Assembly: GCA_964016885.1 (NCBI GenBank)
Contig: OZ024751.1
Location: 15,314,001-15,378,000, forward strand
Direction of reading: 5' to 3'
Length of the DNA: 64,000 bases
Source: Eledone cirrhosa
Taxonomy: Eukaryota
The notes beneath the pieces were generated by a model. It was not told the DNA's origin, did no database searches, and was given only the letters and a program-made list of their open reading frames with translations. The translations under genes and the position numbers were made by a program. Below are positions 1,249 through 60,449 of the stretch, piece after piece. Within the stretch, counting starts at the first letter, position 1; each line of letters begins with the position of its first letter.

Positions 1249-1300
<52 letters not shown>

Positions 1301-1303
<3 letters not shown>

Positions 1304-1526
1304 AAGGTTTTATTTAAAATTGTTGGGTTACAAGTAAATATTTACTACCCAGACAGCTTCCTAATTTAATGGTCGCTTATAATATGGTACGTCAAAATTA
1401 TTTATAAAACTGTTTATATATTGTATTTTATCTGACGAAGGCATGCCATATTTTTAATATGGTATCCCTGAAATATGTATAATGAAATAAATATGGTTTT
1501 ATAAATATAGTTTCCATTTGGTTAAT

Positions 1527-1533
<7 letters not shown>
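1301..1533 (+). mobile_element. short non-autonomous Penelope-like insertion (inverted 43-nt tail plus forward HHR-bearing segment) in (TA)n
   Basis: 1344-1533 closely matches 53208-53398; 1301-1343 is the reverse complement of ~53438-53483; TA microsatellite on both sides. Confidence 0.7.
1417..1495 (+). ncRNA. type I hammerhead ribozyme motif
   Basis: CTGACGA (1432-1438), long stem II, GAAA (1470-1473), self-complementary stem III ATATGTAT, AUA triplet (cut after 1481), stem I TATTTTAT/ATGAAATA extendable by 6 bp past a bulged G. Confidence 0.72.
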
Positions 1534-1576
<43 letters not shown>

Positions 1577-2436: not shown

Positions 2437-2543
2437 GTTCTTATGAACGGGAACTTGCTACAAAGACTTTGATGATACAATCCAAAAGGTTCTACCTGGA
2501 TGTTAAACAGAATAGAAGAGGAAGATTTATTAAAATTGCTGAG
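2437..2543 (+). CDS. Pur-alpha: Pur-alpha/beta family protein, internal coding exon (PUR repeat I); upstream exon with start codon lies outside the window
   Basis: ttccag|gt TCT TAT... translates [35 protein letters not shown]|gttcgt, the PUR repeat I signature; 107 nt, phase 1 to 0. Confidence 0.95.
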
Positions 2544-5500: not shown

Positions 5501-5626
5501 CTACTTAACCACCCAGCCATGCACAAAGCTGGTTTATATTGTATTAGGGACCCACATTTATGGTATGTTACAGGACATTCTTGTTTACCATGTATTAAGC
5601 CATACTAAATACATATTTGGAATAGT

Positions 5627-5855
5627 TTAACCCTTTAGCATTTACATTATACTATATTTACTATTGTATTTTTGCAGTAAAGGCTTTATCTCACATAGTT
5701 ATCGCACATAATATTGAATATATGAGATTTTTGATATTATCTATTTTGAGGACAATACCTTAACATCAGTATGAGTGGCCGGTTATAGCCAGTTTGAACA
5801 GAAAGAGGTGAGAGAATTTGGCTGGATACAGCTGGTTCAAATGCTAAAGGGATAA
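5627..5855 (-). mobile_element. piggyBac-like MITE family A (second copy at 6430-6645)
   Basis: TIR CCCTTTAGCATTTA...AATGCTAAAGGG with TTAA-like flanks, about 220 bp. Confidence 0.75.
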
Positions 5856-8537
5856 GAAAATCAAATATAGTGTGCACTGCAGACAACTCATTGGTGCAGG
5901 CATGGGATGCATATGGAGGGTATTAGTTATGTAAGGAAAATTAATAGATTTAGTATTCTGTTCAGATATTACATTTATATAAATATATAGACTTATTGAC
6001 TTAAAAACCTATGTAGGTAGTTGATTGAATCATGGCTAGAAACTTGTACATCCAGTACTGCAAAATTCATTCTAGTTTGGAACCAGAATACACAGGTTAG
6101 TTTCTAACACCTACATGTCCAACACTGTGGCTATAACATCCTTTGATTTAGTCTGAAATCACATTTTGTACTCTACAGTGCAGTGATTATTTTTAGTGAG
6201 GTCTTGTTGCTATATAGATTGTTTTAACTCTTATCCTGTACCACATGAAACCACATTTGCAAAACATTCTTAAAACATCCATACAAAATACATTATGCAT
6301 CACATTAAACATTCTTTACTACAAATTTTCATAATGATTTGTCCACTAGTAAAAACACTGTTATTTGAATGAAGAAACCTACTTTTAGACATTTTCTGCT
6401 AAATAAGTCAATTTCCCACTATAAGCTCTTTAACCCCTTAGTATTTACATTACTCTATATGCACTATTGTATTTTTGTGGTAAAGACTTAATCTTACATA
6501 ATATCGAATCTATGAGGTTTTGATATAATTTATTTTGAGAACAATACCTTTACATCAGTATGAGTGGCCAGTTATGGCCGGTTTGAACAGAAAGAGGTGA
6601 GAGAATTCTGGCCAGATACGACCAGTTTAAATGCTAAAGGATTAAACATTACAGTTATTGTGTCACATCTCACTGTGTCACACTTTAAATATTACAGTTG
6701 TGACACATCTCACTGTGTCACACTGTAAAAATGACAGTTGTGACACATCTCAATGTATCACACTGTAAACATTACACATCTGACTGTGTCACACTTTAAA
6801 CATTTCCTTCATGACATGGGCTGGATGGGCTGCCACTGTCTAAATCAGTCCAAATTTTGGAGCTACTGTCCTCGTAAAAGGTTTAGGGTCCATCTCTCGC
6901 TCATATGTTCCATTTTTAACATGTTGTTTGCCAACTATTCCATAGACTACTAAATTCATTAAATTGTTGTACCAGCACTAAAAAGGTCATGTCCTTGGCA
7001 AAGAAGATTAAAGAATTTGCTCTATTTCACATTGTCTCCATTCGTTTATTGACCAGCAGGAAGGGGTTGCCTCATCCCCAGCAGATGATGGAAGATAGTT
7101 TGATGAAAGAGAATCAGAGTGAGAGGATGCTAGAAGAGAATGTAAAGGAAGAGAGAGAGAGTGGGATAGAATCAGCATGAACAGTGTGATGGGGAAGGGA
7201 GAGTGATAGGAAGGAGGGAGTTATAGAGGAGAGAGAGTATTTGAAGTGATGGATGTCAACAATGAGTAATAGAGGAGAGAATAATGTGAGGGAGGGGAAG
7301 AGAGAGAGAAAGAAAGAAAGAAAGAGAGTGTGAGAGAGAGAAATAAGTAGCACAGATATCAATTATTTATTGTTTTTATTCGTATTTTGTTAAATCAATC
7401 AATTTAATTGTTATTTCTGCTTTCTTACTGAAAATTCTGATAAATTATTTCATGCCTTATTAATTTTTTTTCCCATTCATTTAAAAAAAAAAAAATTAGA
7501 GTTGACATTAACATTATCACCACCATGACAACCATCATTGTTACTACCATTATAACAACCACCATTGTTACTACCATCATAACAACCACCATTGCTACTG
7601 CCATCATCACTGTTATCATAAATAACAACCACAACTATTACCGTTATCATCATTATCAGAACCACCATTAATATCACCACCACCACCATGATCATTGTCA
7701 CCACCCCTGTACCTACCACGACCAACACCACCAGTATTGGCACCCCCATATTCACTACAAACGCCATCATTACCACCAGCAGCACCTCTACAACCATCTC
7801 CTCCTTCTCTTCCTCCCCTTAGAATCATAGATTGCTGTTAATCACTACTTTGATCCCCCTAAATAGCCCAGTTGGAAGTCTGTGGCCTCAGGTGGCACTG
7901 CTTTCAAATGGAACAACCTTCCAAGTTTTTACTTAAGGGTTGTATCAGTTGGAGAACCTGGCATTACCCAGGGGACATGTGTAGTACTACTCAGGGGACA
8001 GGTGTGGTACTACCCAGTGGGCAAGTGCGATACTTCTACCTGTACTTTGTAACAAACAGTGACATTAACCAGAGGACAGATGTGGTATTTCTACCTATAC
8101 TGTGTAACAAACAGTGACACTACCCAGGGGGACAGGTGTTGCACTTAACAGAAGTGGCTCTACCCAGGGGAAAAGTTACATATTAAGATATCAAATTACA
8201 CTCTGAATAGATACCTGATCTGAATATCTGCAAGAGAGTTGACACTGTACTAAAGGTAACCAACACCCTATTGTTGTTAAACTAACTTAAAACTGTAGAT
8301 CTCAGTAAGAGAGTGAACACTGAACTAAGTTGAAACTGTAGACCTCAGCTAGAGAGTGGACAGTGCACTAAAGGTAACCTGCACCCTGTTAGTGTTAAAC
8401 TAAGTTAAAACTGTAGATCCAGAGAATAGTGCTGGGATTGTTATGCATTTACCAGTACATACTAGTGTATAATTTATTGTTTTACTGGCAAAAGAAGTAA
8501 TCAGTTTCTTTACCAAACTAACAAAGTTGCTTGTGGA

Positions 8538-10489: not shown

Positions 10490-11235
10490 TATATATAGAT
10501 AGTGAGAACATTGTCTGAATATGCAGTAAGATTGTTGATATATTGTGAAAACATTGAATATAGAGTAAGATTGCTTATAAATAGTGAGAACTTTGTCTGA
10601 ATATAGAGCTGCGGTCTCAAACTTAAAGATTCAAAAGGCCATTACATCCTGGGAGAGAGGCACAGCAAGCCAAAAGTGTGATAAGAGAGGGGGCATGATT
10701 TCCACCAGTTATAATACTAATCTGGTAGACTGCTAAATATTTTTTCTATATCAAAATGAATACCCATCTGATAGTAAGTGGGATTTATGGATTAGTACAA
10801 AATGTAGAGGGAGAAATTACCAAGTTTTAGGAAAATATTAGTCACGAATATTGTTTTGCCATGGTCCATAGAAAAGTAGTTGTGGGCCATGTATTTGAGA
10901 TCCCTGATATAGAGTAACATTGCTTATAAATAGTGAGGACTGTCTTAATATAGAGCAAGATTGCTTATAAATAGTGAGGACTTTGTCTGAATATATAGCA
11001 GGATTGCTTATAAATAGTGAGGACTTTGTCTTAATATAGAGCAGGATTGCTTATAAATAGTGAGGACTTTGTCTGAATATATAGCAGGATTGCTTATAAA
11101 TAGTGAGGACTTTGTCTTAATATAGAGCAGGATTGCTTATAAATAGTGAGGACTTTGTCTGAATATAGAGCAGGATTGCTTATAAATAGTGAGGACTTTG
11201 TCTGAATATAGAGCAAGCATGCTTATAAATAGTTG
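10490..11235. repeat. 43-bp minisatellite
   Basis: Unit GCAGGATTGCTTATAAATAGTGAGGACTTTGTCTGAATATAGA; about 7 clean copies after the MITE, degenerate ones before it. Confidence 0.9.
10609..10906. mobile_element. hAT-like MITE inserted in a minisatellite
   Basis: Imperfect TIRs CTGCGGTCTCAAA / TTTGAGATCCCTG; 8-bp direct repeat ATATAGAG at 10601-10608 and 10907-10914. Confidence 0.6.
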
Positions 11236-13048: not shown

Positions 13049-13460
13049 TAATAATAATAATGAAATTATTGTGTAAAGTGCTCAGGTGCACTACAACTCG
13101 TCAAAGGTGTATGTATAGTACATAGAATAATACACAAATGTCAGGGAAGTACATGTGTGTATGTGTTAGCTGTAGTGTTGGCGGATCTCGGGAAGCATGG
13201 AGGCCTTAAAGGATGCAGTGTCTCGACAGCTAACAACTGATGCAGGTAGTTTGTTCCATGCTTCAGCAACTCTGAGCGTGAAAAAATGTTTCCGAAAGTC
13301 ATGGGAACTGTGCTGTTTTCTTACTTTGTGGGCATGTCCACGTGTGTTAGACACATGGAAATCAAAAAGGTACTCAGGGTTGTTGTTGGCAACATGGTTA
13401 ACAATTTTGTGCGTGTTTACCAAGTCAGTTGCCAGGCGTCGGAGCTTCAATGTGTTGGAA
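13049..13460 (-). mobile_element. CR1-clade LINE 3' fragment
   Basis: TLKLRRLATDL..HKI.N...TRGH..K.RKQ....FRKHFFTLRVAEAWNKLP; (ATT)n tail; same family as 47288-48072. Confidence 0.85.
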
Positions 13461-13489
13461 GGTATTACAGCAGTATGTGAGTGTATGTA

Positions 13490-13566
<77 letters not shown>

Positions 13567-14017
13567 ATGCATGCATGTGTGCACATGTAAGTTATTTTAT
13601 CAAGAAATTTATCAGAATTAAAATATAAGCTAATTAATGAAGGAGGTAAATTGTTGGGATAACATGCAGAAGATCTTAAGCAACAATTTCAGATGAGGCT
13701 TATTAGAACTGAGATGAAAAAATAAAAACATATATAAGTAGAATAAATGTAGATTTTTACACAAGTATTTAATAAATTAAAATGCTAATTTAGAAAGACT
13801 AACATCAACAGCATTTCAGTAGTTTTAATAGTATAAAGGTTTCTTGTATTTCTACATGAATTATTGAGGTAATTCCTACATAGAATTTATTTGATTAACA
13901 TTTGTTTCATTTTTCAATAGGCAAAAACCAAAACTACTGTAAAGGAATATATATATTATCATCATCGCTTTTATGTCCACACACACACACACACATATAA
14001 CACATATAGAACAGCAG

Positions 14018-16734: not shown

Positions 16735-17300
16735 ATAGACAGAAGTTACGATATATCTTAATTGTTAGAGTAGACAGAAGTTAGAGATATATCTTAACTG
16801 CTAGGATAGACAGAAGTTAAGGTTATATCTTAATTGCTAGGATAGACAGAAGTTAGAGATATATCTTAACTGCTAGGGTAGACAGAAGTTAGAGATATAT
16901 CTTAATTGCTAGGGTAGACAGAAGTTAGAGATATATCTTAACTGCTAGGATAGACAGAAGTTAAGGTTATATCTTAATTGCTAGGATAGACAGAAGTTAG
17001 AGATATATCTTAACTGCTAGGATAGACAGAAGTTAGAGATATATCTTAACTGCTAGGGTAGACAGACGTTAGAGATATATCTTAACTGCTAGGGTAGACA
17101 GAAGTTAGAGATATATCTTAATTGCTAGGGTAGACAGAAGTTAGAGATATATCTTAACTGCTAGGATAGACAGAAGTTAAGGTTATATCTTAATTGCTAG
17201 GGTAGACAGAAGTTAGAGATATATCTTAATTGCTAGGGTAGACAGAAGTTAAGGATATATCTTAATTGCTAGGGTAGACAGAAGTTAAGGATATATCTTT
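16735..17300. repeat. 36-bp minisatellite, about 15-16 copies
   Basis: Unit TAGACAGAAGTTAGAGATATATCTTAACTGCTAGGG. Confidence 0.92.
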
Positions 17301-18039
17301 ACTAGAGTAGTTGGTGGGTTGGTGGAATTGTTAGTATTGGGTAAGGTACCTTTGAGTATTTGTTCTGGTTCTTTATGTTCAGCTAAAGCACCCTACCTGG
17401 TCCTTGGGTGCTTTAGCTGAGTCCCCTCTGTTGCAAGCATTCAGGCCAGTTTAAAGATACCATCCTCTTCCTTTTCACCAGTCTTAGAGGCACAAAAAAA
17501 GGAGGTGGGTACAACTCATTCCTCTCTGACTAAGCAGTAAAAAGTAAAATGCAAAAGTATAATTCTTGCATCTTGACAACACAGTTTCTTTAACCAATAT
17601 ATCTAGTTAATTTTCCCAGCTTCAGTAGCCAAACATATTATTATTTGTGGAACTATTGAAGGATGGATTGTAAACAGTTGTATGATATTTAAGACATATT
17701 TTTAATACATTTCTGTAAAATTTCTTCCTTTTTTACATTTTATACACAACTTGTCTAATCCATGCTAATGTGGAAAATGGACTTTAAACGATGATAATGA
17801 TGATACATTATAAACATACTATGAAATCGTTTAAATGTTTGACAGTTATTTTATTAAACAAATGTTGAAGTTCACTCTGTTTTCTTGTTCAAAGTCTCTC
17901 TTCTCCACCCTCTTCTAAGCTCAGCTGCTGTCACTAACACTCTGAAAACCTACAACTACTATCATTGTGCTAGTGATAGTGGTGGTCTGTGTATTATTCT
18001 TAGTTTTATTTGTATTATTATCTACCTATCTATATATCT

Positions 18040-23481: not shown

Positions 23482-24145
23482 TTAACCCTTTAGTATTTAA
23501 AGCGGCCATATGCGACCAGAATTCTCTCACCCATTTCTGTTCAAACTGACTGTAACTGACCGCTTATACCAACGTTAAGGTATTGTTCTCAAAATAGATA
23601 ATAACATCATCAAAATCTTGTAGATTTGCTATTATGTGAGATAAAGACTTTACTGCAAAAATACAATACAAATGCTAAAAGTTAATATAGCTCTCTAACT
23701 ATCCAGACATTTCTCTATTCATACAGCTATCTTTTAATATACATGACTCTATATCTCTCTATTGGTCCACACATCTCTTTCTGGTCTCTTTTCTATCTCT
23801 CTTCACATGTCTCTCTAATTATCCACACATTTCTCTATTCATACATCTATCTTTCAATATACATGACTCTATATCTCTCGATTGATCCACACACCTTTTT
23901 CTGGTCTCTTTTCTCTCTCAACCCTTTAGCATTTAAACCAGCCAAATCCGGCCAGAATTTTTTCATTTCTTTCTGTTCAAACCAGCTGTAACTGACCACT
24001 CATACTTATGTTAAGGTATTGTTCTCAAAATAAATAATATCAAAATCTCACAGATACGATATTATGTGAGATAATTATGCGAGGTAAAGCCTTTACAGTG
24101 AAAATATAATAGTATATATAAAATAATGTAAATGCTAAAGAGTTA
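23482..24145 (+). mobile_element. two MITE family A copies (23482-23685 and 23920-24145)
   Basis: Same TIRs and body as other copies. Confidence 0.72.
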
Positions 24146-39382: not shown

Positions 39383-39982
39383 GCACCTGCAATGGACATG
39401 TACTTTTTTTATTGACCCTGAAAGGATAAAAGACAAAGTTGACCTTGGCAGGGTTTCAATTCAGAATAAGACTCCCAGAAAAATGTCCAAAATTAACGAC
39501 CCTGCTAAATCGACTCCTCAACACTTTACTTTGTATGACAGAAATATTCCTAACACTGGCAGTAATTCTTTAAATGGTTGATTAACCTTAGAATTTATAC
39601 TAAAATATACATTAATCACAGCAGTTTATTCTTCCATCAAACCATATCCTGTCTCATCTATTGAAGATACCTCTTGATGGTGTCTGAACCCTTTCACGAG
39701 ATAACAGTGAATGTGTGGCAATTAATATTGAAAAATATTCAAGAATTCGGTAGATTTTTGTAAAATAACTTTTTCATTAATAAAATTATGAGGGAAAGTT
39801 TAATTTTGATATGTACACCTTAAAATGAACTGTTTTCTCACAGAATGATGGGCAGTTTCAAGCAGGTTGGTATTGAAAGATTCAGCCTATTCATACCTTC
39901 CTTCTCAATACTTGTGGAATGTATCACTTCTTAGATACAGAGAGATGCTCTTATCAACATGAAGTACAATTACCATAGACTG

Positions 39983-40209
39983 TTTAACCCATTAGCATTT
40001 AAACTAGCTGTATCCAGCCAGAATTGTCTCACCTCTTTCTGTCAAACTGGCTGTAACTGGCCACTCATACTTGTTAAGGTATTATTCTCAAAATAAATAA
40101 TATCAAAATATCATAGATTCTGTATTATGAGAGACAATTATGTAAGATAAAACATTTACCACAAAAATACAATAGTGTATATAGAGTAATGTAAATGCTA
40201 AAGGGTTAA
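39983..40209 (+). mobile_element. piggyBac-like MITE family A, complete copy (another at 38242-38430)
   Basis: TTAA-CCCATTAGCATTTA ... TAAATGCTAAAGGG-TTAA; TTAA flanks and CCC/GGG ends are piggyBac hallmarks. Confidence 0.8.
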
Positions 40210-40588
40210 ACATTCACCTTTGTTGAAAATTGCTTAGATGGCTGAATTACAAAGGGAGGGAAATGTTTAGTGCCAGGTTATTCATAATGAAGTTGCATAC
40301 TAGCCATGACAATCACCAGTTGTATCTGGGGCAACATTTTTTTAACCTGCCCTTCACTTATTTAAGACGATAGAGGAGATATGACTGCTAGAAATAGCAG
40401 TCTATTTAAGATGGCAGTCCTCTGCCATCTTAAATAGAGTTTTCTTTGTAGTAACATGCAGGGAGTTACGTATAGAGAATGGAAATTTTGGTAAAGAAGG
40501 ATTTAGTAAATGTAGAATTTCATTCTTTTATCAAACATTACAGAGAAAAAAATATTTCAGAAACAAAACTTTGAAAGCAGCAATAGTT

Positions 40589-44904: not shown

Positions 44905-45183
<279 letters not shown>

Positions 45184-45552
45184 TCAATGTAAAAACAGTG
45201 GTGATGGTGGCGGTGGTCTAAAAAGTCTAAAGTCTGTTTTAAGCCAGAAGGCTTGTAAGGCCGGTGCTTATCTCAGTTTCATGGTGTGAAGTGACAAAGT
45301 ACAACATTTTTCCCTGGACCGGGCGCCAGTCCATCACAGGGTAAAACCCCCAGCTACTCTGGTACCTATTTTCAGCTGAGTATACTGGAGTAATGTGAAA
45401 ATGAAGTGTTTTGCTCAAGAACACAACACACAACCCAGTCCAGGAATTGAACCCACAACATTATGATCATAAGTCCATCACCCTTACCACACTAGGCCAT
45501 GCGACTCCACTATGGTGGTGGTCGGGGCGAGATAGAATTGTCATTATAAACT

Positions 45553-46175
45553 CATCATCATCATCATCATCACCGTTTTACGTCCGTTCTTCCACGCTAG
45601 CATGGGTTAGACGGGTTGTCCTGTTGTGTGCAGTGTCTGGTCGGCTGACTATGCCTTGCTCATACAGGAACTGATCTGGCTTGATTTCTACAGCTGGATG
45701 CCCTTCCTAACACCAACCTCATTTACAGTGAGTGCTGGGTGCTTTTTCGTGGCGCCTACACGTCCACTTTACAGTGTGGGCTGGGTGCTTTTTTGCCGTG
45801 GCACCTCCACGACCACCTTGCAGTGGGGGGTGTGGGGGCATATTGTTTATATGCTTCAGCATGTACCCATGGGAGGTCGGGTACTCTGTATTACTGCGTG
45901 ACGCCAGAAGTCACGGTCGTGTGTCATTGTCTTTGAGAGGTGTAATTGGGTAAGGTCGGCTTTTATCACCTCATCCCAGGTCATCTTGGGTCTCCCCACT
46001 CCGCGGTTTCCATCAACTTCTAGTGCTCTGCACCTTTTTATGCAGCTGTCATCCTTCATACGCATCACATGTCCATACCAGCGCAACCGCCTCTCCTGCA
46101 CACAGCATTTGATTCCTCTTATGCTCAGTCTCTCTCTCAATTCATTTATGCTTTGTCGACATCCATCGGAGCATG
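45553..46175 (-). mobile_element. RTE-clade LINE 3' end
   Basis: RRLRWYGHVMRM....GNRGVGRPKMTWDEVIKADL...DRDFWR; (GAT)n tail; related decayed copy at ~9066-9725 and many short tails elsewhere. Confidence 0.85.
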
Positions 46176-46924
46176 CAGGCTTCGTTTCTCTCTAATCTAC
46201 GTAAGTCTTCCACCTTCACAAACTGATTTATTTAAACAAATCACCTTATCTTGATTGTTATAATATATCTGCCATTCTCCCCTCTGGTCTTTTTCAGTCA
46301 CCTGTTTTATTTAGCAATATTCTCAGAATTTCAAACAGAACCAATTTGTTAAATAACAGATTATTGACATTCGGCCATAAAGCCCCTGTATATCTTTGTA
46401 TTAGTCATTTGTGATGCCACTTACTGTTCTGCTTAAACTAGAGTATGTATAGATATGTTATCCACCATGTTAGATGGTCATTTTGGTGGCACAATAAAAA
46501 GTACCCACTTCACCTTGTTAGGTGGTTGTTTTGGTGCCATGATAAAAAGCACCCAGTCCACTCTGTAAGACAGTCATACTGGTGACACAATGAAAAACCA
46601 CCCAGTCTACCCTGTTAGATGGTCATTTTGGTTACACGATAAAAAGCACCCAGTCCACAGTATAACATGGTTTTAGGAAGGGCATCTAGCCATAGAAACG
46701 AAGCCAAAATACAGATCCATATGCGCAAGACACGGTCTCCTGAACTGACTTGTTTCAGACACTAAACTAGGGACTGAATCACAAGCAGCAGGTAGACTAG
46801 TGCTTTTCAAATTCAAAAAGCCATTAACATATTAAAAAAAAGGTACATTTCTTTGTAGATGGTACCGTGCTTTCTTTCATACCAAATCAATTAGAATAAA
46901 ATAAAGAGTTAGAAGGCAACTTAC

Positions 46925-47118
46925 TTGCAAACAACATCCAGAAAATCTAAACTAAAGAAATGGTTACAAATATTTCCAGCATTGAAGAGTAGTTCGCCAT
47001 CTTGGTTACGTTTTTCAGCCGTTGGTGTGGTTATTTCACTATATTCCACAACTTGGAAATTTCCATCAACTTTACACACTACACCAACTGGTTCTGTTGG
47101 GAAAGCCTTCTTCACCAC
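46925..47118 (-). CDS. UAP1: UAP1 exon
   Basis: ataaag|[66 protein letters not shown]|gtaagt; EYSE and GNICNH motifs; 194 nt. Confidence 0.95.
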
Positions 47119-47168
47119 CTTTATATATACAGAAGACATATATATATATATATATTATATATATATAT

Positions 47169-47200
<32 letters not shown>

Positions 47201-47287
47201 GAACACAAACAAATACAGAAGACACATATTACATACACAGAAAAATATATACATGGAAGGAAAACATATACACAAAAGGCAAAAAAA

Positions 47288-48072
47288 TAATAATAATAAT
47301 AATAATGAAATTATTGTCTACAGTGCTCAGGTGCACTACAACTCATCAAAGGTGCATGTATAGTACATAGAATAATGTACAAATATCAGGAAAATGAACA
47401 GTGTACGAGTCATGAAATACATGTGTGCGTGTGTATGGAGGGAGGATATCAGGTATAGTGTTGGCGAATCTCAGGAAACATGGAGGTTTTAAAGGGTGCA
47501 GTGTCTCGACAGCTAACTGATGCAGGTAGTTTGTTCCATGCTTCAGCAACTCTGAGTGTGAAAAAAGTTTCCAAAAGTCATGGGAGCTGTGCTGTTTTCT
47601 GACTTTGTAGGCATGCCCACGTGTGTTAGACACATGGAAATAAAAGAAAAGGTGCTCAGAGTCGTTGTTGGCAAGATGGTTAATAATTTTGTGGGTCTTT
47701 ACCAAGACAGTTGCCAGACGTCGGAGCTTCAATGTATCCATGCCCAGGGAAGCAAGGCGTTTAGAGTACGGTAGATGCCTGATGGAGGGTATTCGCTTGA
47801 TTGCACGTCTCTGAACAGTTTCCAGGCGGTCAATGTTCTGAGCAAGATAGGGGTTCCAGACTGGTGATGCAAATTCTAAGTGTGGCCACACAATAGCTAT
47901 ATACAGCTTTAAATAGAGCGGCTGACAAAGGTCTTGCTGAGCGATGCTAAAACACCCTCGCCCTTCTTGACAATTTTAGAGACGTGCTTCGTCCAACGCA
48001 AATCGTGCTGCTGACAGTAATGCCCAGGTCACGTTCACAAGAAGACTTCTTGATATTAGTGTTGTGGAGGGA
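47288..48072 (-). mobile_element. CR1-clade LINE 3' fragment with frameshifts
   Basis: ERDLGITVS...PHLEFASPVWNPYL..IDRLE.VQRRA.KRIP...LPY..RL..LG..TL..RRL; 3' UTR ending TGCACCTGAGCACTGT..(ATT)n. Confidence 0.88.
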
Positions 48073-48244
48073 ATACACAAAAGACAAACAAATTATATAT
48101 GCACAAAAGAAACAAATTATATATAAACAAAAGAAAAAAAAATATATAGATATATATACATAGAAGACAAACATATATATATATATATAAGTAAAAAAAC
48201 AAAAAAACAAAAACAATAACAAAAAGTGCAGTATGGACAGTGTT

Positions 48245-48315
48245 GGTATTAGGTTCACGCTTGAGAGTGGGAGGTGGGGACGACGTTTCCAGCATAAGCC
48301 CTTCATCAGGAGAAA
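48245..48315 (-). ncRNA. degenerate minimal hammerhead core (Penelope-type relic)
   Basis: On -: CTGATGA-AGGGC-TTAT-GCTG-GAAA-CGTC; downstream CAAGCGTGAACCTAATA resembles CAAGCATTAAACTAATA after the 24922 core. Confidence 0.45.
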
Positions 48316-48542
48316 GGGGGGAAGGAAAAGAGTTCTGAGGGTGTGAGGGGGAGTGGTGGAAAAGCATTAAAAAAGGGGAAAAAAAAAAATTTAAAAGAAT
48401 ATAGAAGACAAACATTATATACACAGAAGACAAATATATATATATACACACACACACACACCGAGAAGACAAGCATTATATATACAGAAAACAAATATAT
48501 GATATACATACAGAATACAAATGCATGATATATAAATATAAG

Positions 48543-48633
<91 letters not shown>

Positions 48634-49864
48634 AAACAATTGATATATATAAGATAAACAATTGATATATATATATATATATATAAGATAAACAATTGAT
48701 ATATATATATATATATAAGATAAACAATTGATATATATATATATTTATATATATGTGTATATATACAGAATACAAACATTTATATACATACAGAATACAA
48801 ACGCATGATATATAAATATAAGACAAATATATGATATATATATATATCATTCATTTCACGTCCACTTTTCCCTGCTTGCAAGGGTGGGACTTGTATATAT
48901 ATATATATATTTATATATATACACATAAGATAAACAATTGATATATATATATGACATCTAACCCATGCTAGCGTGGAAAGTGGACGTTAAACGAGGATGA
49001 TGATGATGATATACACAGAATACAAACATTTATATACATACAGAATACAAACATATACATGCATACACACACATATATATATATATATACAGAAGATAAA
49101 CAATTGATATATATATACAGAATACAAACATTTATATACATACATAGAAGAAACATTTATATATATATATACACACACACACAAAAGACAAACAGTATAT
49201 GTACAGAAGGCATGATATATATATACACACAAATATGATTTAAAAACAGATTTATCAAGATAAATGTTTAACAAAACTATTTTTCTCTTTTATCCTATGC
49301 CACTCATTACCTGTACAACCCTCTCTTACTTCCCCTCCCCCACTGTATCCTTCTACCACCCAACATTACCTTATTTGTCAAGTGGTTATGGGTCATTATT
49401 TTATAGAATGATGATGATAGGCTATCTTTATGTTTATGTTTATCATTTAGGTTGTGGGTTGTCAGGGTGGTGTGTGTGTCTTTGTGGTTTGTGGTTTGTG
49501 TATATCAAAGAGAATGTGTGTGTGTGTGTGTGGTTTGTGTATATCAAAGTGTGTGTGTGTGTGTGTGTGTGTGGTTTGTGTATATCAAAGAGAATGTGTG
49601 TGTATGTGTGATTTGAGTATATCAGTGTTTGTGTGTGTGTGTGTGTGAGGTTTGTGTATATCAAAGAGAATGTATGAGTGTGTGACTTGTATATAATGTT
49701 TATGTGTGTGTGTTGATGGTATCATCATCATCAACATCGAACAGCCATTTTCCACGCTAGCATGGGTAAGACGGGCTGGTTTATATACATATTATATATG
49801 TGTATATATATCAGAGAAAAAGTAAGCAAGTGTGTGTGTGTATATATGTGTGTATGTGTGTGAC

Positions 49865-50080
49865 GTTTATATTGTTGGAAGTCTCAAATATTTGTGCATT
49901 ATTTAGTACAAGCATACAAAGAATGTGCAGTCTATTTACACCAGATCTGCACATTAGTACAGTATCTGTTGAAAGAATCAACATTTCAACGTTTGAAGTA
50001 GATCCAGTAGGAGGTTTGAGACAAACTTTATTGATTTTATTCAGTTTTGATAAATTTATAGACAGCCAGGTCATCATAAA
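49865..50080 (-). mobile_element. possible decayed hAT transposase C-terminal dimerisation-domain fragment
   Basis: NLSKLNKINKVCLKPPTGSTSNVE...ST...MC....NRL resembles by eye the hAT P.L..L....L..P.S...VER.FS.......RNRL pattern. Confidence 0.4.
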
Positions 50081-50130
50081 AGGTCACCAGAGACTACCAG
50101 GTCAAGAATTCATAGTATTTTGTTGTTTTT

Positions 50131-50195
50131 CTTAACTAAAACATATTCATACAGGAGAGAAGCCATACCACTGTGATATTTGTGGTAAATCATTT
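50131..50195 (+). pseudogene. isolated C2H2 zinc-finger fragment
   Basis: 50142-50195 encodes HIHTGEKPYHCDICGKSF; no flanking ORF; antisense within a UAP1 intron. Confidence 0.75.
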
Positions 50196-50324
50196 GAAGT
50201 AGTGAGAGAAGAGTAGTATCCATGACCTTTTATAAACCCTTTTAATACCAACCCAGCCAAAACAGGCTTTGCTTTTATGAAGCAAAACCACCCACTTCAA
50301 AGGGTTTCTTATTACATTAAAATC

Positions 50325-51400
50325 TGTGTCAGACAAACTCAGGGACCCACATCATATAAGTGTTAACCTGTATTCTACCAAGTGCCAGACACACCCAGGG
50401 ATCCATGTCTCAAACATTACTCATATGCTACCATGTGCCAGACAAACCAGAGACATACATCACACAAACGTTTCCCCTCTACTCAACCAAGTGTCAGACG
50501 CACCCAAAGACTCAAATCTCAAACGTTTCCCTCTACTCAACCAAGTGTCAGACACACCCAAAGACCCAAATCTCAAACGTTTTCCCTCTACTCAACCAAG
50601 TGTCAGACACCCCCAAAGACCCAAATCTCAAACGTTTCCCTCTACTCAACCAAGTGTCAGACACACCCAAAGACCCAAATCTCAAACGTTTCCCCTCTAC
50701 TCAACCAAGTGTCAGACATACCCAAAGACCCAAATCTCAAACGTTTCCCCTCTACTCAACCAAGTGTCAGACACCCCCAAAGACCCAAATCTCAAACGTT
50801 TCCCTCTACTCAACCAAGTGTCAGACACCCCCAAAGACCCAAATCTCAAACGTTCCCCTCTACTCAACCAAGTGTCAGACACACCCAAAGACCCAAATCT
50901 CAAACGTTTCCCCTCTATTTAACCAAGTGTCAGAGAAACCCAAAGACCTAAATCACACAAATGTTTCCCCTCTACTCAACCAAGTATCTGACACACCCAA
51001 AGACCTAAATCTCACAAACGTTTCCCCTCTACTCAACCAAGTGTCAGACACACCCGAAGACCCAAATCACACAAACGTTTCCCCTCTACTTAACCAAGTG
51101 TCAGATACACCCAAAGACCTAAATCTCACAAACGTTTCCCCTCTACTTAACCAAGTGTCAGACACACCCAAAGACCTAAATCTCACAAACGTTTCCCCTC
51201 TACTTAACCAAGTGTCAGAGAAACCCAAAGACCTAAATCTCACAAACGTTTCCCCTCTACTTAACCAAGTGTCAGACACACCCAAAGATCCAAATCTCAC
51301 AAACATTTCCCCTCTACTCACCAAGTGTCAGACACACCCAAAGACTCAAACCTCACAAATATACCCTCATACTCTACCAAGTATCAGACAAATCCAGGGA
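50325..51400. repeat. 54-57-bp minisatellite
   Basis: Unit CAACCAAGTGTCAGACACACCCAAAGACCCAAATCTC(AC)AAACGTTTCCCCTCTACT; explains the long ORFs at 50326-51517. Confidence 0.92.
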
Positions 51401-51591
51401 CCCACATCTCACGTTTGCCCATACTCTACCATACTCTACCATATTATCATGGGCAAAATATTTGACACCTCTCATTTGCAATGTCTGTCTATTCTAGCAG
51501 ATGACAGAAAACAGTAAAAAAAAAAAAAAAAAAAGAATAAAATGTGTAAATTTTCCTCTGAAAAAAGCAAAGTGAGGAATATTCTGATTAC

Positions 51592-51764
51592 CTTTGCTCC
51601 ACAATCAGCATCTTTGTAAACACAATAGCCTATAAACACAGGGTCAACCATCTTTACCAAGATATTGTCCACACAATAAGCATGTATGCATTCTACACCT
51701 CTAGATCTCATGTTCTCTAATAATCCATGTTCTCTGAGAGCTTTATATAGGCCACCATTACCAT
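51592..51764 (-). CDS. UAP1: UAP1 exon
   Basis: ttctag|[58 protein letters not shown]|gtaatc; PDGNGG and VDNIL motifs; 173 nt. Confidence 0.96.
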
Positions 51765-52047
51765 CTAGAATGGGGAAGAGAAACATTTATACATTAGTTA
51801 AATACCATTCTTTCATCGTTGCAACTTATATCCACATTAATGACGATTTGTTAAAAACTACACTATTCTATATATACATATATATATATGTATATATAGA
51901 TGTGTGTGTGTATATATGTGTATATATATGTATATATATAGTCTGTGTATATATATATATATATATATAGTGTGTGTGTGTGCGTGTGTATATATATATA
52001 TAGTGAAAAATGGAACGGGAACAAAACAGAGGCAGTACGAACAAAGG

Positions 52048-52099
<52 letters not shown>

Positions 52100-52162
52100 T
52101 GTGTGTGTATATATATATATAGTGTGTGTGTGTATATATATATATAGTCATCATCATTATCA

Positions 52163-52203
<41 letters not shown>

Positions 52204-52262
52204 TATATATATATATATATAGGGTGTGTGTGTGTATATATATAGTCATCATCATTATCATC

Positions 52263-52306
<44 letters not shown>

Positions 52307-52341
52307 CGATATTAAACAAATGGAAACTATATTTATAAAAC

Positions 52342-52420
52342 CATATTTATTTCATTATACATATTTCGGGGATACCATATTAAAAATATGGCATGCCTTC
52401 GTCAGATAAAATACAATATA
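52342..52420 (-). ncRNA. type I hammerhead ribozyme motif (sense to UAP1 pre-mRNA)
   Basis: Mirror of 53280-53358; CTGACGA at 52405-52399; predicted cut between 52356 and 52355. Confidence 0.75.
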
Positions 52421-53279
52421 TAAACAGTTTTATAAATAATTTTGACGTACCATAAATATGAGCGACCATTATGTAGGAAGCTGGTTTGGTAGTGAAGTGT
52501 TTATAAATATTTAGTGTTAAGCACAGTTATAAAGAAAGACGGAGAAAAAGAAGAAATGTATGTAAAGAAAAACAGAGAGAGATAGGGGAGAGAGAAATAG
52601 GGAGGAGGTGAAAAAAGAGAGGCAACCGAAGGCAACAGATGAATAATAATAATTCATCATACAAATTGAGAGGTTTAAGAGGGAGGGAGTACGGTAATTA
52701 TTTAGTTATAGTGTTAAGGACAGTTATAGAGGAGACGGAAAGAAAGAAAAAATTAGAGATGAAGAGAAAACAGACAAAATAATAATAATTATATAGGGGG
52801 AGGTGGAAATCAAGAGAGAAATAAGAGAGAACTCTCTTATTTCTCTCTTGATTTCCACCTCCCCCTATATAATTATTATTATTTTGTCTCCCTCTTTCTT
52901 TTCCCCCCACCTCTATCTCTCTCTGTCTGTTTTCTCTTCATCTCTAATTTTTTCTTTCTTTCCGTCTCCTCTATAACTGTCCTTAACACTATAACTAAAT
53001 AATTACCGTACTCCCTCCCTCTTAAACCTCTCAATTTGTATGATGAATTATTATTATTCATCTGTTGCCTTCGGTTGCCTCTCTTTTTTCACCTCCTCCC
53101 TATTTCTCTCTCCCCTATCTCTCTCTGTTTTTCTTTACATACATTTCTTCTTTTTCTCCGTCTTTCTTTATAACTGTGCTTAACACTAAATATTTATAAA
53201 CACTTCACTACCAAACCAGCTTCCTACATAATGGTCGCTCATATTTATGGTACGTCAAAATTATTTATAAAACTGTTTA

Positions 53280-53358
53280 TATATTGTATTTTATCTGACG
53301 AAGGCATGCCATATTTTTAATATGGTATCCCCGAAATATGTATAATGAAATAAATATG
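53280..53358 (+). ncRNA. type I hammerhead ribozyme motif
   Basis: CTGACGA 53295-53301; stem II GG-C-ATGCCATATT/TTT/AATATGGTAT-CC-CC; GAAA 53333-53336; palindromic stem III; AUA cut after 53344; 8+6 bp stem I. Confidence 0.75.
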
Positions 53359-53568
53359 GTTTTATAAATATAGTTTCCATTTGTTTAATATCGTATATCT
53401 ACTCCAAAAACTTGTCGAGTGCTTTATATCAGTTATAAAATATTTACTTGTTGTAACCCAACAATTTTAAATAAAACTTTTGCATATATATATATATATA
53501 TATATATAGTGCATATATATATATATAGTGTGTGTGTGTATATATATATAGTCATCATCATTATCATC

Positions 53569-53627
<59 letters not shown>

Positions 53628-53780
53628 CATATATATATATAGTGTTTATATATATAAATATTGTGTGTGTGTGTATATATATATATATAGTGTGTGTGTG
53701 TATATATATATATAGTGTGTGTGTGTATATATATAGTGTGTGTGTGTGTGTATATATATAGTGTGTGTGTGTGTATATAT

Positions 53781-53829
<49 letters not shown>

Positions 53830-53906
53830 TGTGTGTATATATATATATATTTATTGTGTGTATGTGTATACACATATATACACACATACATGTTTGGTGT
53901 CTACAA

Positions 53907-54720
<814 letters not shown>

Positions 54721-54726
54721 TGTTAC

Positions 54727-54902
54727 CTGGTGCTAAAGCTATACCATTTTTAGCATTATTGATTATTTTCCCATCAAATGTTATACAAGGAAGTAGAAAC
54801 TGTTGAAAAACTATAATATTCTCCTTCTTCAGACCAAAATAGTCATGTTGTTGGAAAAATTGTTCTGTACTTTCTTTGGTGTGGTCACTGGTCATTATAT
54901 AC
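54727..54902 (-). CDS. UAP1: UAP1 exon
   Basis: ccacag|g [59 protein letters not shown]|gtaaca; 176 nt, phase 2 to 1. Confidence 0.94.
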
Positions 54903-55450
54903 CTGTGGCAGGTGGTAGAGGTAATATATTAACAGAGTGACCACTGATCATTATATACCTGTGGCAGGTGGTAGAGGTAAAATATCAATAGAGTGACCAC
55001 TGGTCATTATATACCTGTGACAGGAGGTAGAGGTAAATTAACAGAGTGACCACTGGTAATTATATACCTGTGGCAGCTGGTAGAGGTAAAATATTAACAG
55101 AGTGACCACTGGTCATTATATACCTGTGGCAGGTGGTAGAGGTAAAATATTAACAGTGACCACTGGGTGACCACTGGTCATTATATACCTGTGGCAGGTG
55201 GTAGAGGTAAACTATTAACAGAGTGACCACTGGGTGACCACTGTCATTATATACCTGTGGCAGGTGGTAGAGGTAAAATATTAACAGAGTGACCACTGGT
55301 CATTATATACCTGTGGCAGGTGGAAGAGGTAAAATATTAACAGTGACCACTGGTCATTATATACCTGTGGCAGGAGGTAGAGGTAAAATATTAACAGAGT
55401 ATTACTGTATGACCACTGGTCATTATATACCTGTGGCAGGAGGTAGAGGT
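54881..55450 (-). repeat. 53-66-bp tandem array duplicating a UAP1 splice acceptor and exon start
   Basis: Ten CAG|GTATATAAT units with first exonic base at 54902 (real), 54958, 55014, 55067, 55123, 55188, 55254, 55310, 55364, 55430. Confidence 0.92.
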
Positions 55451-56312
55451 GATAGTGGAGATAGTGGTGGTGGTAGAGGTAGTGGAGGTAGACAGTGGTG
55501 TGGAGGTAGAGATAGTGGTGGTGGAGGTAGTGGTGGTAGAGATGGTGGAGATAGTGGTGGTAGAGATAGTGGTGGTGGTGGTAGAGATAGAGGTGGTAGA
55601 GATAGTGGTGGTGGTGGTAGAGGTAGTGGAGGTAGAGATAGTGATGGTGGTGGTAGAGGTAGTGGAGGTAGAGGTGGTGGTGGTAGAGGTAGTGGAGGTA
55701 GAGATAGTGGTAGTGGTGGTAGAGATAGTGGAGGTGGTGGTGGTAGAGTAGAGGAGGTAGAGATAGTGGTGGTGGTAGAGGTAGTGGAGGTAGAGATAGT
55801 GGTGGTGGTGGAGGTAGTGGAGGTAGAGATAGTGGTGGTGGTGGAGGTAGTGGAGGTAGAGATAGTGGTGGTGGTGGAGATAGTGGAGGTAGAGATAGTG
55901 GAGGTGGTGGTAGAGGTAGTGCAGGTAGAGATAGTGGTGGTGGAGGTAGTGGTGGTGGTAGAGATAGCAGTGGTGGTGGTGGTAGAGATAGTGGAGGTAG
56001 AGATAGTGGTGGTGGTGGTGGTAGAGGTGGTGGTGGTAGAGGTAGTGGTGGTAGAGATAGCGGTGGTGGAGGTAGTGGTGGTGGTGGTAGAGATAGTGGA
56101 GGTAGAGATAGTGGTGGTGGAGGTAGTGGTGGTGGTGGTGGTAGAGGTAGTGGTGGTAGAGATAGTGGTGGTGGAGATAGTGGTGGTGGAGATAGTGGTG
56201 GTGGAGATAGTGGTGGTGGAGATAGTGGTGGTGGAGATAGTGGTGGTGGAGATAGTGGTGGTGGTGGTAGAGATAGTGGAGGTAGAGATAGTGGTGGTGG
56301 AGATAGTGGTGG
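55450..56312. repeat. GGT/GGA/TAG low-complexity repeat
   Basis: GTAGAGATAGTGGTGGTG-type triplet mosaic. Confidence 0.9.
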
Positions 56313-56535
56313 GTGTATGTGTGGTCACTGGTCATTATATACCGGAGGCAAAGTGGTAGAGGTAGAGGTGATACTGGTGGTAGTAGTGAACATAACTTAA
56401 AGGTTTCTTAAATAAATTTACAATGGAATCCTTTTAATATAAGTGTGAACATTTTAAAATGGGCATCTTTGTATCATAGAATCAGGGCAATTCAGTAAGT
56501 TTGGTGTCAAAAAGGGTCAACAAAAAGCAAAATCA

Positions 56536-56790
<255 letters not shown>

Positions 56791-58994: not shown

Positions 58995-59465
58995 TTAACC
59001 CTTTAGCATTTACATTATTCTATATATACTATTGTATTTTCATGGTAAAGGCTTTATTTCACATAATGTCTCACATAATGTCTCACATAATGTCTCACAT
59101 AATGTCTCACATAACGTCTCACATAACGTCCCACATAACGTCCCACATAACGTCCCACATAACGTCCCACATAACGTCCCACATAACGTCCCACATAACG
59201 TCCCACATAACGTCTCACATAACGTCTCACATAACGTCTCACATAACGTCCCACATAACGTCCCACATAACGTCCCACATAACGTCTCACATAACGTCTC
59301 ACATAATGTCTCACATAATGTCTCAATATCGAATCGATGAGATTTTATTATTTATTTTGAGAACAATACCTAAACATCAGTATGAGGGGTCGGTTAGGGC
59401 TGGTGTGAACAGAAAGAGGTGAGAGAATTCTGGCCAGATATGGCTGGTTTAAATGCTAAAGGTTA
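58995..59465 (-). mobile_element. MITE family A copy with internal 12-bp tandem expansion
   Basis: TIRs intact; about 22 copies of CACATAA(C/T)GTC(T/C) at 59059-59325. Confidence 0.8.
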
Positions 59466-59955
59466 ATACTGTCACAGCTTTAAAGATATATTTATATAAG
59501 GCACACTAAATAAGGACTAAATAACCATTATTTTGACCAAACTAAATATAGACAAGATAAACATACTGGACTGGACTTTCACCTTTATTCTTCATAACTG
59601 ATCGCTTTCTGTGTGTGGTGGGGGTGGGGGTGGGGGTGATGGTGGGGGTGATGGTGGTGGTGGTGGTAGTGGTGGTGGTGGTGGTGGTGACGATGGTGGT
59701 GGGAGTTGTGGAATTGGTGGCGATGGTGGTAGGAGTTGTGGAATTGGTGCCGATGATGGTGGTAGTGGTGACAGTGATGGTTGTTGTGGAGGTGATATCA
59801 GGAGGTGGTGATGGTGGGTGTGATGGGGGTGGGGATCATAGTGGTTGTACATATAAATACACACACACACACAAACAAACAACAAAGACCAGCTGTTATG
59901 TTCTCCAATTTAATATCTGATATATAGGTTGTCCCCAAAATATGTATGTATATAA

Positions 59956-59999
<44 letters not shown>

Positions 60000-60449
60000 A
60001 TACATATATGTATATATATATGTGTATATGTATATGTATATATATGTGTGTATATGTATATATATATGTGTATATGTATATATGTATATATATATATATG
60101 TATATGTATATACATATATATGTATCATTTCATCATCATCATCATTTCATTTTACGTCCACTTTTCCCTGCTTGCAAGGGTGGGACGGGAACTGATTCTG
60201 GCTTGGTTTCTACAGCTGGATGCCCTTCCTAACACCAACCTCATTTACAGTGAGTGGTGGGTGCTTTTTTGCCTCCACGACCACTTTGTAGTGGAATGAT
60301 AGGGACCCCATTTCTACAGCTGAGTAAACTGAAGCAATGTGAAATAAAGTGTCTAGCTCAAGGAAACAACACATCACTCGGTCTGAGAATTGAACTCAAA
60401 ACCTTTCGATTGCAAGGCCAATGCTCTAACCACTAAGCCATGTGCCTCC

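Follow-up and report, generated by a model that had tools for sequence, protein, structure and literature searches.

A long-stemmed type I hammerhead in fold-back insertions of a probable high-copy octopod PLE

Hammerheads at PLE ends, their cleavage as dimers and octopus PLE hammerheads are already in print (PMC4209133; review PMC6765202; PMC8557442). The PLE hammerheads of D. willistoni, A. aegypti and M. japonicus (Cervera and De la Pena 2014, PMC4209133) are of type I with the form CUGANGA-H, carry a palindromic segment between A15.1 and U16.1, have U-rich 5' and AU-rich 3' flanks, and occur as opposite-strand pairs 100-700 bp apart and as many lone copies; they offer precedents for an A at the cleavage position and for an A-U closure of helix II. 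PLE insertions carry at their 5' end an inverted copy that is itself 5'-truncated; they have a tail at one end and favour (TA)n (Craig et al. 2021, PMC8557442). In the Hydra clade, which includes Hydra-1_Obim of Octopus bimaculoides, the targets are (TA)n, the hammerhead lies in non-coding sequence about 100-200 nt from the 3' end, A or U is common at H17, and the octopus family has an A-U closure (PMC8557442). Poseidon PAc of Anolis inserts into AT-rich targets and acquires its one-sided tail from two RT start sites downstream of the hammerhead, which cleaves only with protein (Frangieh et al. 2024, PMC11167929). PLE hammerheads cleave poorly in vitro, and PAc insertion did not require cleavage. 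Outside PLEs, the non-LTR retrozymes of coral, mussel and axolotl also carry type I hammerheads with a weak stem III, the axolotl one cleaving better as a dimer (PMC7229834), and 235 Rfam hammerheads are given for the giant squid genome (PMC6962438).

Here we describe a hammerhead in the window, the whole 64,000-nt stretch of Eledone cirrhosa DNA that was analysed (contig OZ024751.1, 15,314,001 to 15,378,000). The motif is a PLE-type hammerhead with unusually long stems, of a kind already known, and it shares with the motifs of PMC4209133 all the features listed above. It differs in that helix II has 12-13 bp, compared with about 3-8 bp in the rows compared from that paper, helix I has 14 bp plus a 12-bp outer helix, compared with 2-6 bp, and no ORF is linked to it. 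The Hydra-clade hammerheads resemble it in target, position, H17 and closure; the octopus Hydra hammerhead listed in PMC8557442 has another sequence and a 7-bp stem II. PAc shares the one-sided tail and the AT-rich targets; its tail is 30-40 nt long and its ORF starts in stem II, whereas here the tail is 85-88 nt and the frame opened by an ATG in stem II closes after four codons. Unlike the present element, the non-LTR retrozymes form tandem 150-450 nt repeats with canonical helix sizes and circles. We consider it probable that the motif is the pLTR/3'-end hammerhead of a high-copy, (TA)n-targeting octopod PLE, that lone copies are largely off and that cleavage would be carried out by pairs of sense copies. 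The points of interest are the long helices, the long tail and a possible off-register.

The motif and the layout of two insertions

The window contains the motif at three places.
53280..53358, plus strand: type I hammerhead of the right arm; stem I 53280-53294/53345-53358, core 53295-53301, stem II 53302-53332, GAAA 53333-53336, palindrome 53336-53343, predicted cut after 53344
52342..52420, minus strand: hammerhead of the inverted arm, sense in UAP1 pre-mRNA
1417..1495, plus strand: hammerhead of the second insertion, with U at 11.1 and a predicted cut after 1481; sense to PurA

An initial annotation had placed a complete hammerhead at 53280-53358, and its reality and its limits are borne out by the sequence. 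All core bases are present (CUGACGA and GAAA), U16.1 is in place, H17 is not G, and helices I and II flank the core with helix I open-ended, the active helix I being dominant only in the isolated 79-mer. Stem I comprises 8 bp (53287-53294/53345-53352) and 6 bp beyond the bulged G53286, as originally described, and the stem II of about 12 bp resolves into a 10-bp helix (53306-53315/53319-53328) with 2-3 basal pairs around a mismatch; the stem II spacer to GAAA is 31 nt. The palindrome, eight bases from A15.1 to U16.1, is self-complementary with two G-U pairs, and the cut positions predicted at the outset, after H17 (A53344) and after A1481 in the 1.4-kb copy, are kept. The reading of the motif as a type I hammerhead of a metazoan retroelement is likewise supported. 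The 79-mers at 53280-53358 and 52342-52420 share one sequence, from which that at 1417-1495 departs only at the position matching 53332. The annotation was right that this 1.4-kb copy has U before GAAA and a possible A-U closure. The C copies are not open at the base of stem II, nor defective in this respect: in the PLE register, with A53302 as the extra base, their stem II can be closed by G53303-C53332. The C copies thus carry the PLE consensus (extra nucleotide after A9, G10.1-C11.1, palindromic 15.2-16.2), and the U allele, which is the majority allele, has an A-U closure of helix II instead of G10.1-C11.1, like M. japonicus.

All three copies lie where they had been reported; their arrangement into arms corresponds to only two insertion events.
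52832..53486, plus strand: sense arm, the 5'-truncated 3' end of the element, with CT-rich spacer, hammerhead and tail
53402..53486, plus strand: tail of about 85-88 nt, on one arm only, from arm comparison
52299..52829, minus strand: inverted arm without tail, otherwise identical except that 39 nt are missing between two short direct repeats and that the terminal bases differ
52772..52889, no strand: perfect hairpin apex of 58 bp with a 2-nt loop, meeting place of the two 5'-truncation points
53487..53620, no strand: (TA)n and minisatellite flank, whose unit recurs in direct orientation left of the insertion (52064-52300)
1301..1343, minus strand: second insertion, last part of the tail, matching 53438-53486
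1344..1538, plus strand: second insertion, tail-less copy matching 53207-53401 at 93%, with a 14-nt palindrome where it meets the tail piece
1251..1300, no strand: (TA)n target left of the second insertion; the right side is 1531-1574

Over 478 nt, the complementarity of segments 52299-52776 and 52924-53401 is 100%, the 58-bp hairpin lying at their centre, and the 52.3- and 53.3-kb copies are the arms of one fold-back insertion; the right arm exceeds the left by ~85 nt, up to 53486, and (TA)n is found at both ends. The 1.4-kb insertion has the same layout read backwards: at 1.3 kb, a minus-strand tail piece stands head to head with a plus-strand tail-less copy between (TA)n runs. Both insertions thus consist of a tailed 5'-truncated copy and an inverted tail-less copy. 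There is no ORF within the 655 nt of the sense arm, and no tandem sense partner for any of the three copies was found in the 64-kb window. The two insertions differ at 1 of 109 nt within the structure and at 11 of 83 nt beyond it (Fisher p 0.0005, for n = 2 insertions and a boundary chosen after folding). The junction of the small insertion, at 1332-1346, is a 14-nt perfect palindrome with a 3-nt microhomology, which suggests a fold-back and then a template jump. Upstream of the hammerhead, the CT-rich spacer contains an internal duplication (52882-52991/53084-53188, 74%).

The bare core pattern has 9 matches at 3 places in the window, a number reached by 12 of 100 shuffles and so not beyond chance. 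The full descriptor (core, stem I of at least 5 bp, stem II and palindromic stem III), which was written after the motif was seen, has 3 matches in the window, none in 100 dinucleotide shuffles and none in 118 metagenome loci (620 kb) preselected for the core; these loci were rejected as chance matches, the best BLAST match being 26 nt. Rfam searches of the window found no hammerhead either at the gathering score, where the only match was tRNA-like, or at E<=10, where there were 6 chance matches; the long spacer may be behind the miss. A high-copy octopod hammerhead thus escapes both Rfam and short-spacer descriptors. No published work on the present hammerhead family was found in a library thin in subscription journals. 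Identity with the published octopus Hydra-1_Obim or Naiad ends was rejected: none of six 12-15-mers of the element was found in the supplement of PMC8557442, a text in which line breaks can hide a match, and a by-eye comparison gave no match, the Naiad_Omin and Naiad_Esco 3' ends lying outside it.

The element family in public reads

Of 18 listed runs, 13 contain part of the stretch and 3, from one sample, contain half or more, with no RNA run among those listed as containing it; four (X1, X4, X5 and X16) were surveyed against 52832-53486. X1 may be the window's own sample, and X4 and X5 are two other organisms. The element matched 4552 contigs in X1, 92 in X4 and 18 in X5, and 36,447 of the 12.47 million reads of X16 (RAD); it is a high-copy family in three organisms. 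Summed contig depth, not to be read as copy number, falls steeply, by orders of magnitude, from the element's 3' end towards the 5' side, a bias that fits 5' truncation. (TA)n follows 53398 in 39 X1 contigs, 3 X4 contigs and 6416 X16 reads, so that the short end at 53398-53401 is family-wide. Strand switches account for 12 of the 15 joints listed (out of 26), at low counts that may include ligation chimeras. No partial-tandem sense copy was found in the window or, in these short reads, among the same 15 joints.

Among the 40 variant rows listed (out of 178), six variants fall within the 79-mer.
53293 A>G: turns an A-U pair of stem I into G-U
53299 C>A: lies at N7
53308 G>A: turns G-U into A-U
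53332 C>T: the majority allele, with stem II closed by A-U
53340 G>A: palindrome made perfect; 53%, 38% and 12% of depth in X1, X4 and X5
53325 G>A: stem II pair broken, as far as listed

Five of these six are compatible with the structure, compared with 42 of 79 possible transitions (p about 0.1). The same 40 rows held no core or outer-helix variant and no two-sided compensatory change. Within 53262-53370, two indels were present among the 12 listed (out of 45), both in the bulge that the active register leaves. Within the palindrome, the most frequent change, 53340 G>A, produces perfect self-complementarity and is also compatible with the slipped register described below.

Loose ends before 53333 occur in 48 X1 contigs and 1021 X16 reads, with shared sequence from G12 onward, and suggest a sister subfamily in which another stem II joins exactly at G12; this other stem II had no match in the window. 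Loose ends before 53280 combine a shorter bulge with an A-U to G-U change in the outer helix and suggest a sister subfamily, possibly a single locus. X16 read starts at 53305 and 53308 were considered as cleavage ends and ruled out, the library being DNA and the starts coinciding with the single GCATGC site in stem II. This site, which we take to be that of SphI, biases the X16 allele counts.

Folding of the motif and the case for dimers

The folding models used are nearest-neighbour models that ignore tertiary contacts. The initial annotation had counted only 2 bp in the monomer stem III; in the isolated 79-mer the 15.1-16.1 pair has P 0.001, monomer stem III costing 2-4 kcal/mol and being too weak to form on this prediction. 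As a dimer, helix III has 8 bp rather than 2, with a duplex energy of -2.2 kcal/mol at 37 C. In this isolated RNA the active stem I reaches P 0.86, and the double hammerhead is favoured by 11.6 kcal/mol over two monomer hammerheads and by 0.8-3.6 kcal/mol over two folded monomers, while lying about 2-5 kcal/mol above an inactive co-fold; if the U copy carries the 53340 allele, the double hammerhead and the best co-fold are equal in energy. These values speak for the dimer reading of the initial annotation.

Two further features, the first with an outer helix that the initial annotation had missed, appear when the flanks are included.
53262..53370, plus strand: extended structure with an outer helix (53262-53273/53359-53370; 12 of 12 pairs Watson-Crick, z -3.6) and, in the active register, a bulge at 53274-53279
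53275-53280/53350-53355 and 53282-53289/53340-53347, plus strand: competing slipped register, from folding

With native flanks, the slipped stem I, which pairs A53344, is predicted with P 0.76-0.96 at 37 C and the active register with 0.01-0.02, and the active dimer is less stable than two folded monomers by 1.8-6.4 kcal/mol and than the best co-fold by 7-12 kcal/mol at 37 C; over all folds with native flanks, the active stem I has 1-4% and the active dimer is 6-12 kcal/mol less stable than inactive co-folds. Because the active stem I is rare and the dimer unfavoured in this context, two copies may not suffice. Among the contexts folded, the active register exceeded 0.5 only in RNAs starting at 53280, and the 79-nt construct of the initial annotation was the only one where it dominates; in nascent RNAs with the upstream flank it was never favoured. 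A tested bulge indel brought the slip down to 0.02-0.17 and raised the active form little. The slipped register, as modelled, may be incidental in an AU-rich RNA.

A lone copy would be largely off because stem III cannot close and the outer helix would shift stem I to the register that pairs the cut site. Two sense copies would pair via the palindrome, swap stem I strands and cut after A53344; the setting would be a partial-tandem transcript of the source element, and the element's protein or another chaperone would probably assist. Dimer dependence of cleavage, as proposed by the initial annotation, is plausible, but cleavage would probably also take assistance from protein or timing. The three copies in the window are probably truncated intronic passengers that do not cut, since the first runs antisense to its host gene, another is hidden by the antisense arm and the remaining one is a lone monomer.

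A stricter form of this proposal, that of a long-armed cephalopod PLE hammerhead with an outer-helix lock freed only by palindrome-nucleated dimerisation together with the element's protein, is possible, if unlikely. In lone intronic copies the lock would keep stem I in the slipped register, with the cut site hidden. Were it true, tens of thousands of sense copies could sit in introns with the pre-mRNA uncut; and because the 31-nt spacer exceeds published core descriptors (7-17 nt), such motifs could be missed in clades said to be without hammerheads, such as the Naiads.

It is unlikely that the ribozyme of this same element is monomeric, with a 2-bp stem III and tetraloop sufficient once core and tertiary contacts form and the palindrome incidental. 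As a monomer, the axolotl HHR_Amex2, with 2 bp and a tetraloop, reached 22% cleavage in 1 h, and a rate of ~0.8 per min is given for a coral monomer (PMC7229834); tertiary stabilisation lies outside nearest-neighbour folding, and the active stem I dominates the 79-mer. However, monomer stem III carries the energetic cost and the P of 0.001 given above, the active register falls to 1-4% with flanks, the helix lengths are unfit for the canonical loop 1-loop 2 geometry, and the palindrome-perfecting allele is common. Moreover, an efficient monomer would be expected to cut PurA pre-mRNA.

The intact core and cleavable NUH, untouched among the 40 of 178 variant rows listed, speak against a motif kept as a conserved RNA handle (for protein binding, RT positioning or dimerisation) with cleavage dispensable or lost, a reading that we find unlikely. 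In favour of it, core mutants of PAc had no effect on insertion in vitro and none of its RNA-seq reads ended at the cut site (PMC11167929). The native fold predicted here buries the cut site and the majority allele is without G10.1-C11.1, although other PLE hammerheads, too, have an A-U closure or A at H17. For the dimer reading that we favour, and for its dependence on protein, the element should be a good test case because of its long mutable helices, its palindrome-tuning alleles and its predicted off-state.

The element and its surroundings

Membership in the PLEs is inferred from architecture. In both insertions an inverted 5'-truncated copy is joined at the 5' end and the tail is present at one end only; the targets are (TA)n microsatellites and 5' truncation is heavy. 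No RT or GIY-YIG sequence was found in 133 window frames, the copies ending before any ORF, and the tail frame taken as an ORF start gave 0 matches (32 aa, a weak test); the link to PLE proteins therefore goes through architecture only. Target and hammerhead position would let one guess at the Hydra or Neptune clade. By analogy with known PLEs, the element's RT would prime at nicks in (TA)n and begin copying the RNA from either of two points that lie about 55 and 142 nt downstream of the cut site, thereby yielding one arm with a tail and one without; early termination and fold-back would then give the head-to-head junction.

A non-LTR retrozyme, that is a short tandem repeat with a circular RNA rather than a PLE end, is very improbable. 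Such a unit would share the type I motif with its short stem III, the low GC and the lack of an ORF in 655 nt, and molluscs have retrozymes (PMC7229834); yet the window holds no head-to-tail 150-450 nt repeats, both insertions show the inverted 5'-truncated tailed layout, depth falls steeply on the 5' side and the stems are far longer than canonical. A non-autonomous PLE derivative is possible. We give equally little credence to an assembly fold-back artefact at 52.3/53.3 kb, which would account for 100% complementarity over 478 nt with a 2-nt apex in a stretch that no record spans whole among the runs compared, because the arms differ by the 39-nt loss and the tail, the flank units are in direct orientation and consecutive UAP1 exons follow in order on both sides, the layout being moreover repeated in the 1.3-kb insertion.

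Three host gene exons bear on the position of the PLE-like insertions.
54728..54901, minus strand: UAP1-like exon that precedes the host intron, matching the Octopus sinensis protein at residues 156-213 (81%)
51586..51765, minus strand: next UAP1-like exon, from residue 214, 77%
2438..2543, plus strand: PurA-like internal exon with AG acceptor

The fold-back insertion sits in a UAP1 intron, between two consecutive minus-strand exons; among 996 matches, those nearest to a UAP1 exon are from Argonauta (80%) and Octopus sinensis (77%), which marks the host as octopod-like. The 1.4-kb copy is probably in the PurA intron preceding exon 2438-2543, given the AG acceptor of this downstream internal exon. 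In UAP1 pre-mRNA, folding predicts that all 79 of the 79 nt of the sense hammerhead pair with the other arm.

Several other features of the window were noted. The two host genes are convergent, the PurA-like one spanning 2438-23328 (plus strand, three exons matched) and the UAP1-like one 44905-56790 (minus strand, four exons matched). On the minus strand, UAP1 pre-mRNA is predicted to form a perfect ~530-bp hairpin (52299-53401), presumably a likely A-to-I editing substrate in a cephalopod. The tRNA-like match (60383-60440, minus strand, Rfam 32.5 bits) is probably the head of a tRNA-derived SINE. A dispersed repeat of ~230 nt occurs in both orientations, its copies 78-87% alike, at 167-371, 5620-5857, 6429-6648, 23914-24145, 39981-40215 and 59325-59466. 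Segment 18082-19134 (plus strand) resembles a non-LTR retrotransposon 3' fragment and has a weak zf-RVT match (Pfam, below cut-off), and 13166-13591, 47346-47975 and 45856-46191 (all minus strand) presumably resemble such fragments too. Minisatellites with units of ~55, 72 and 85 nt occupy 50325-51431, 16735-17310 and 10907-11233, respectively.
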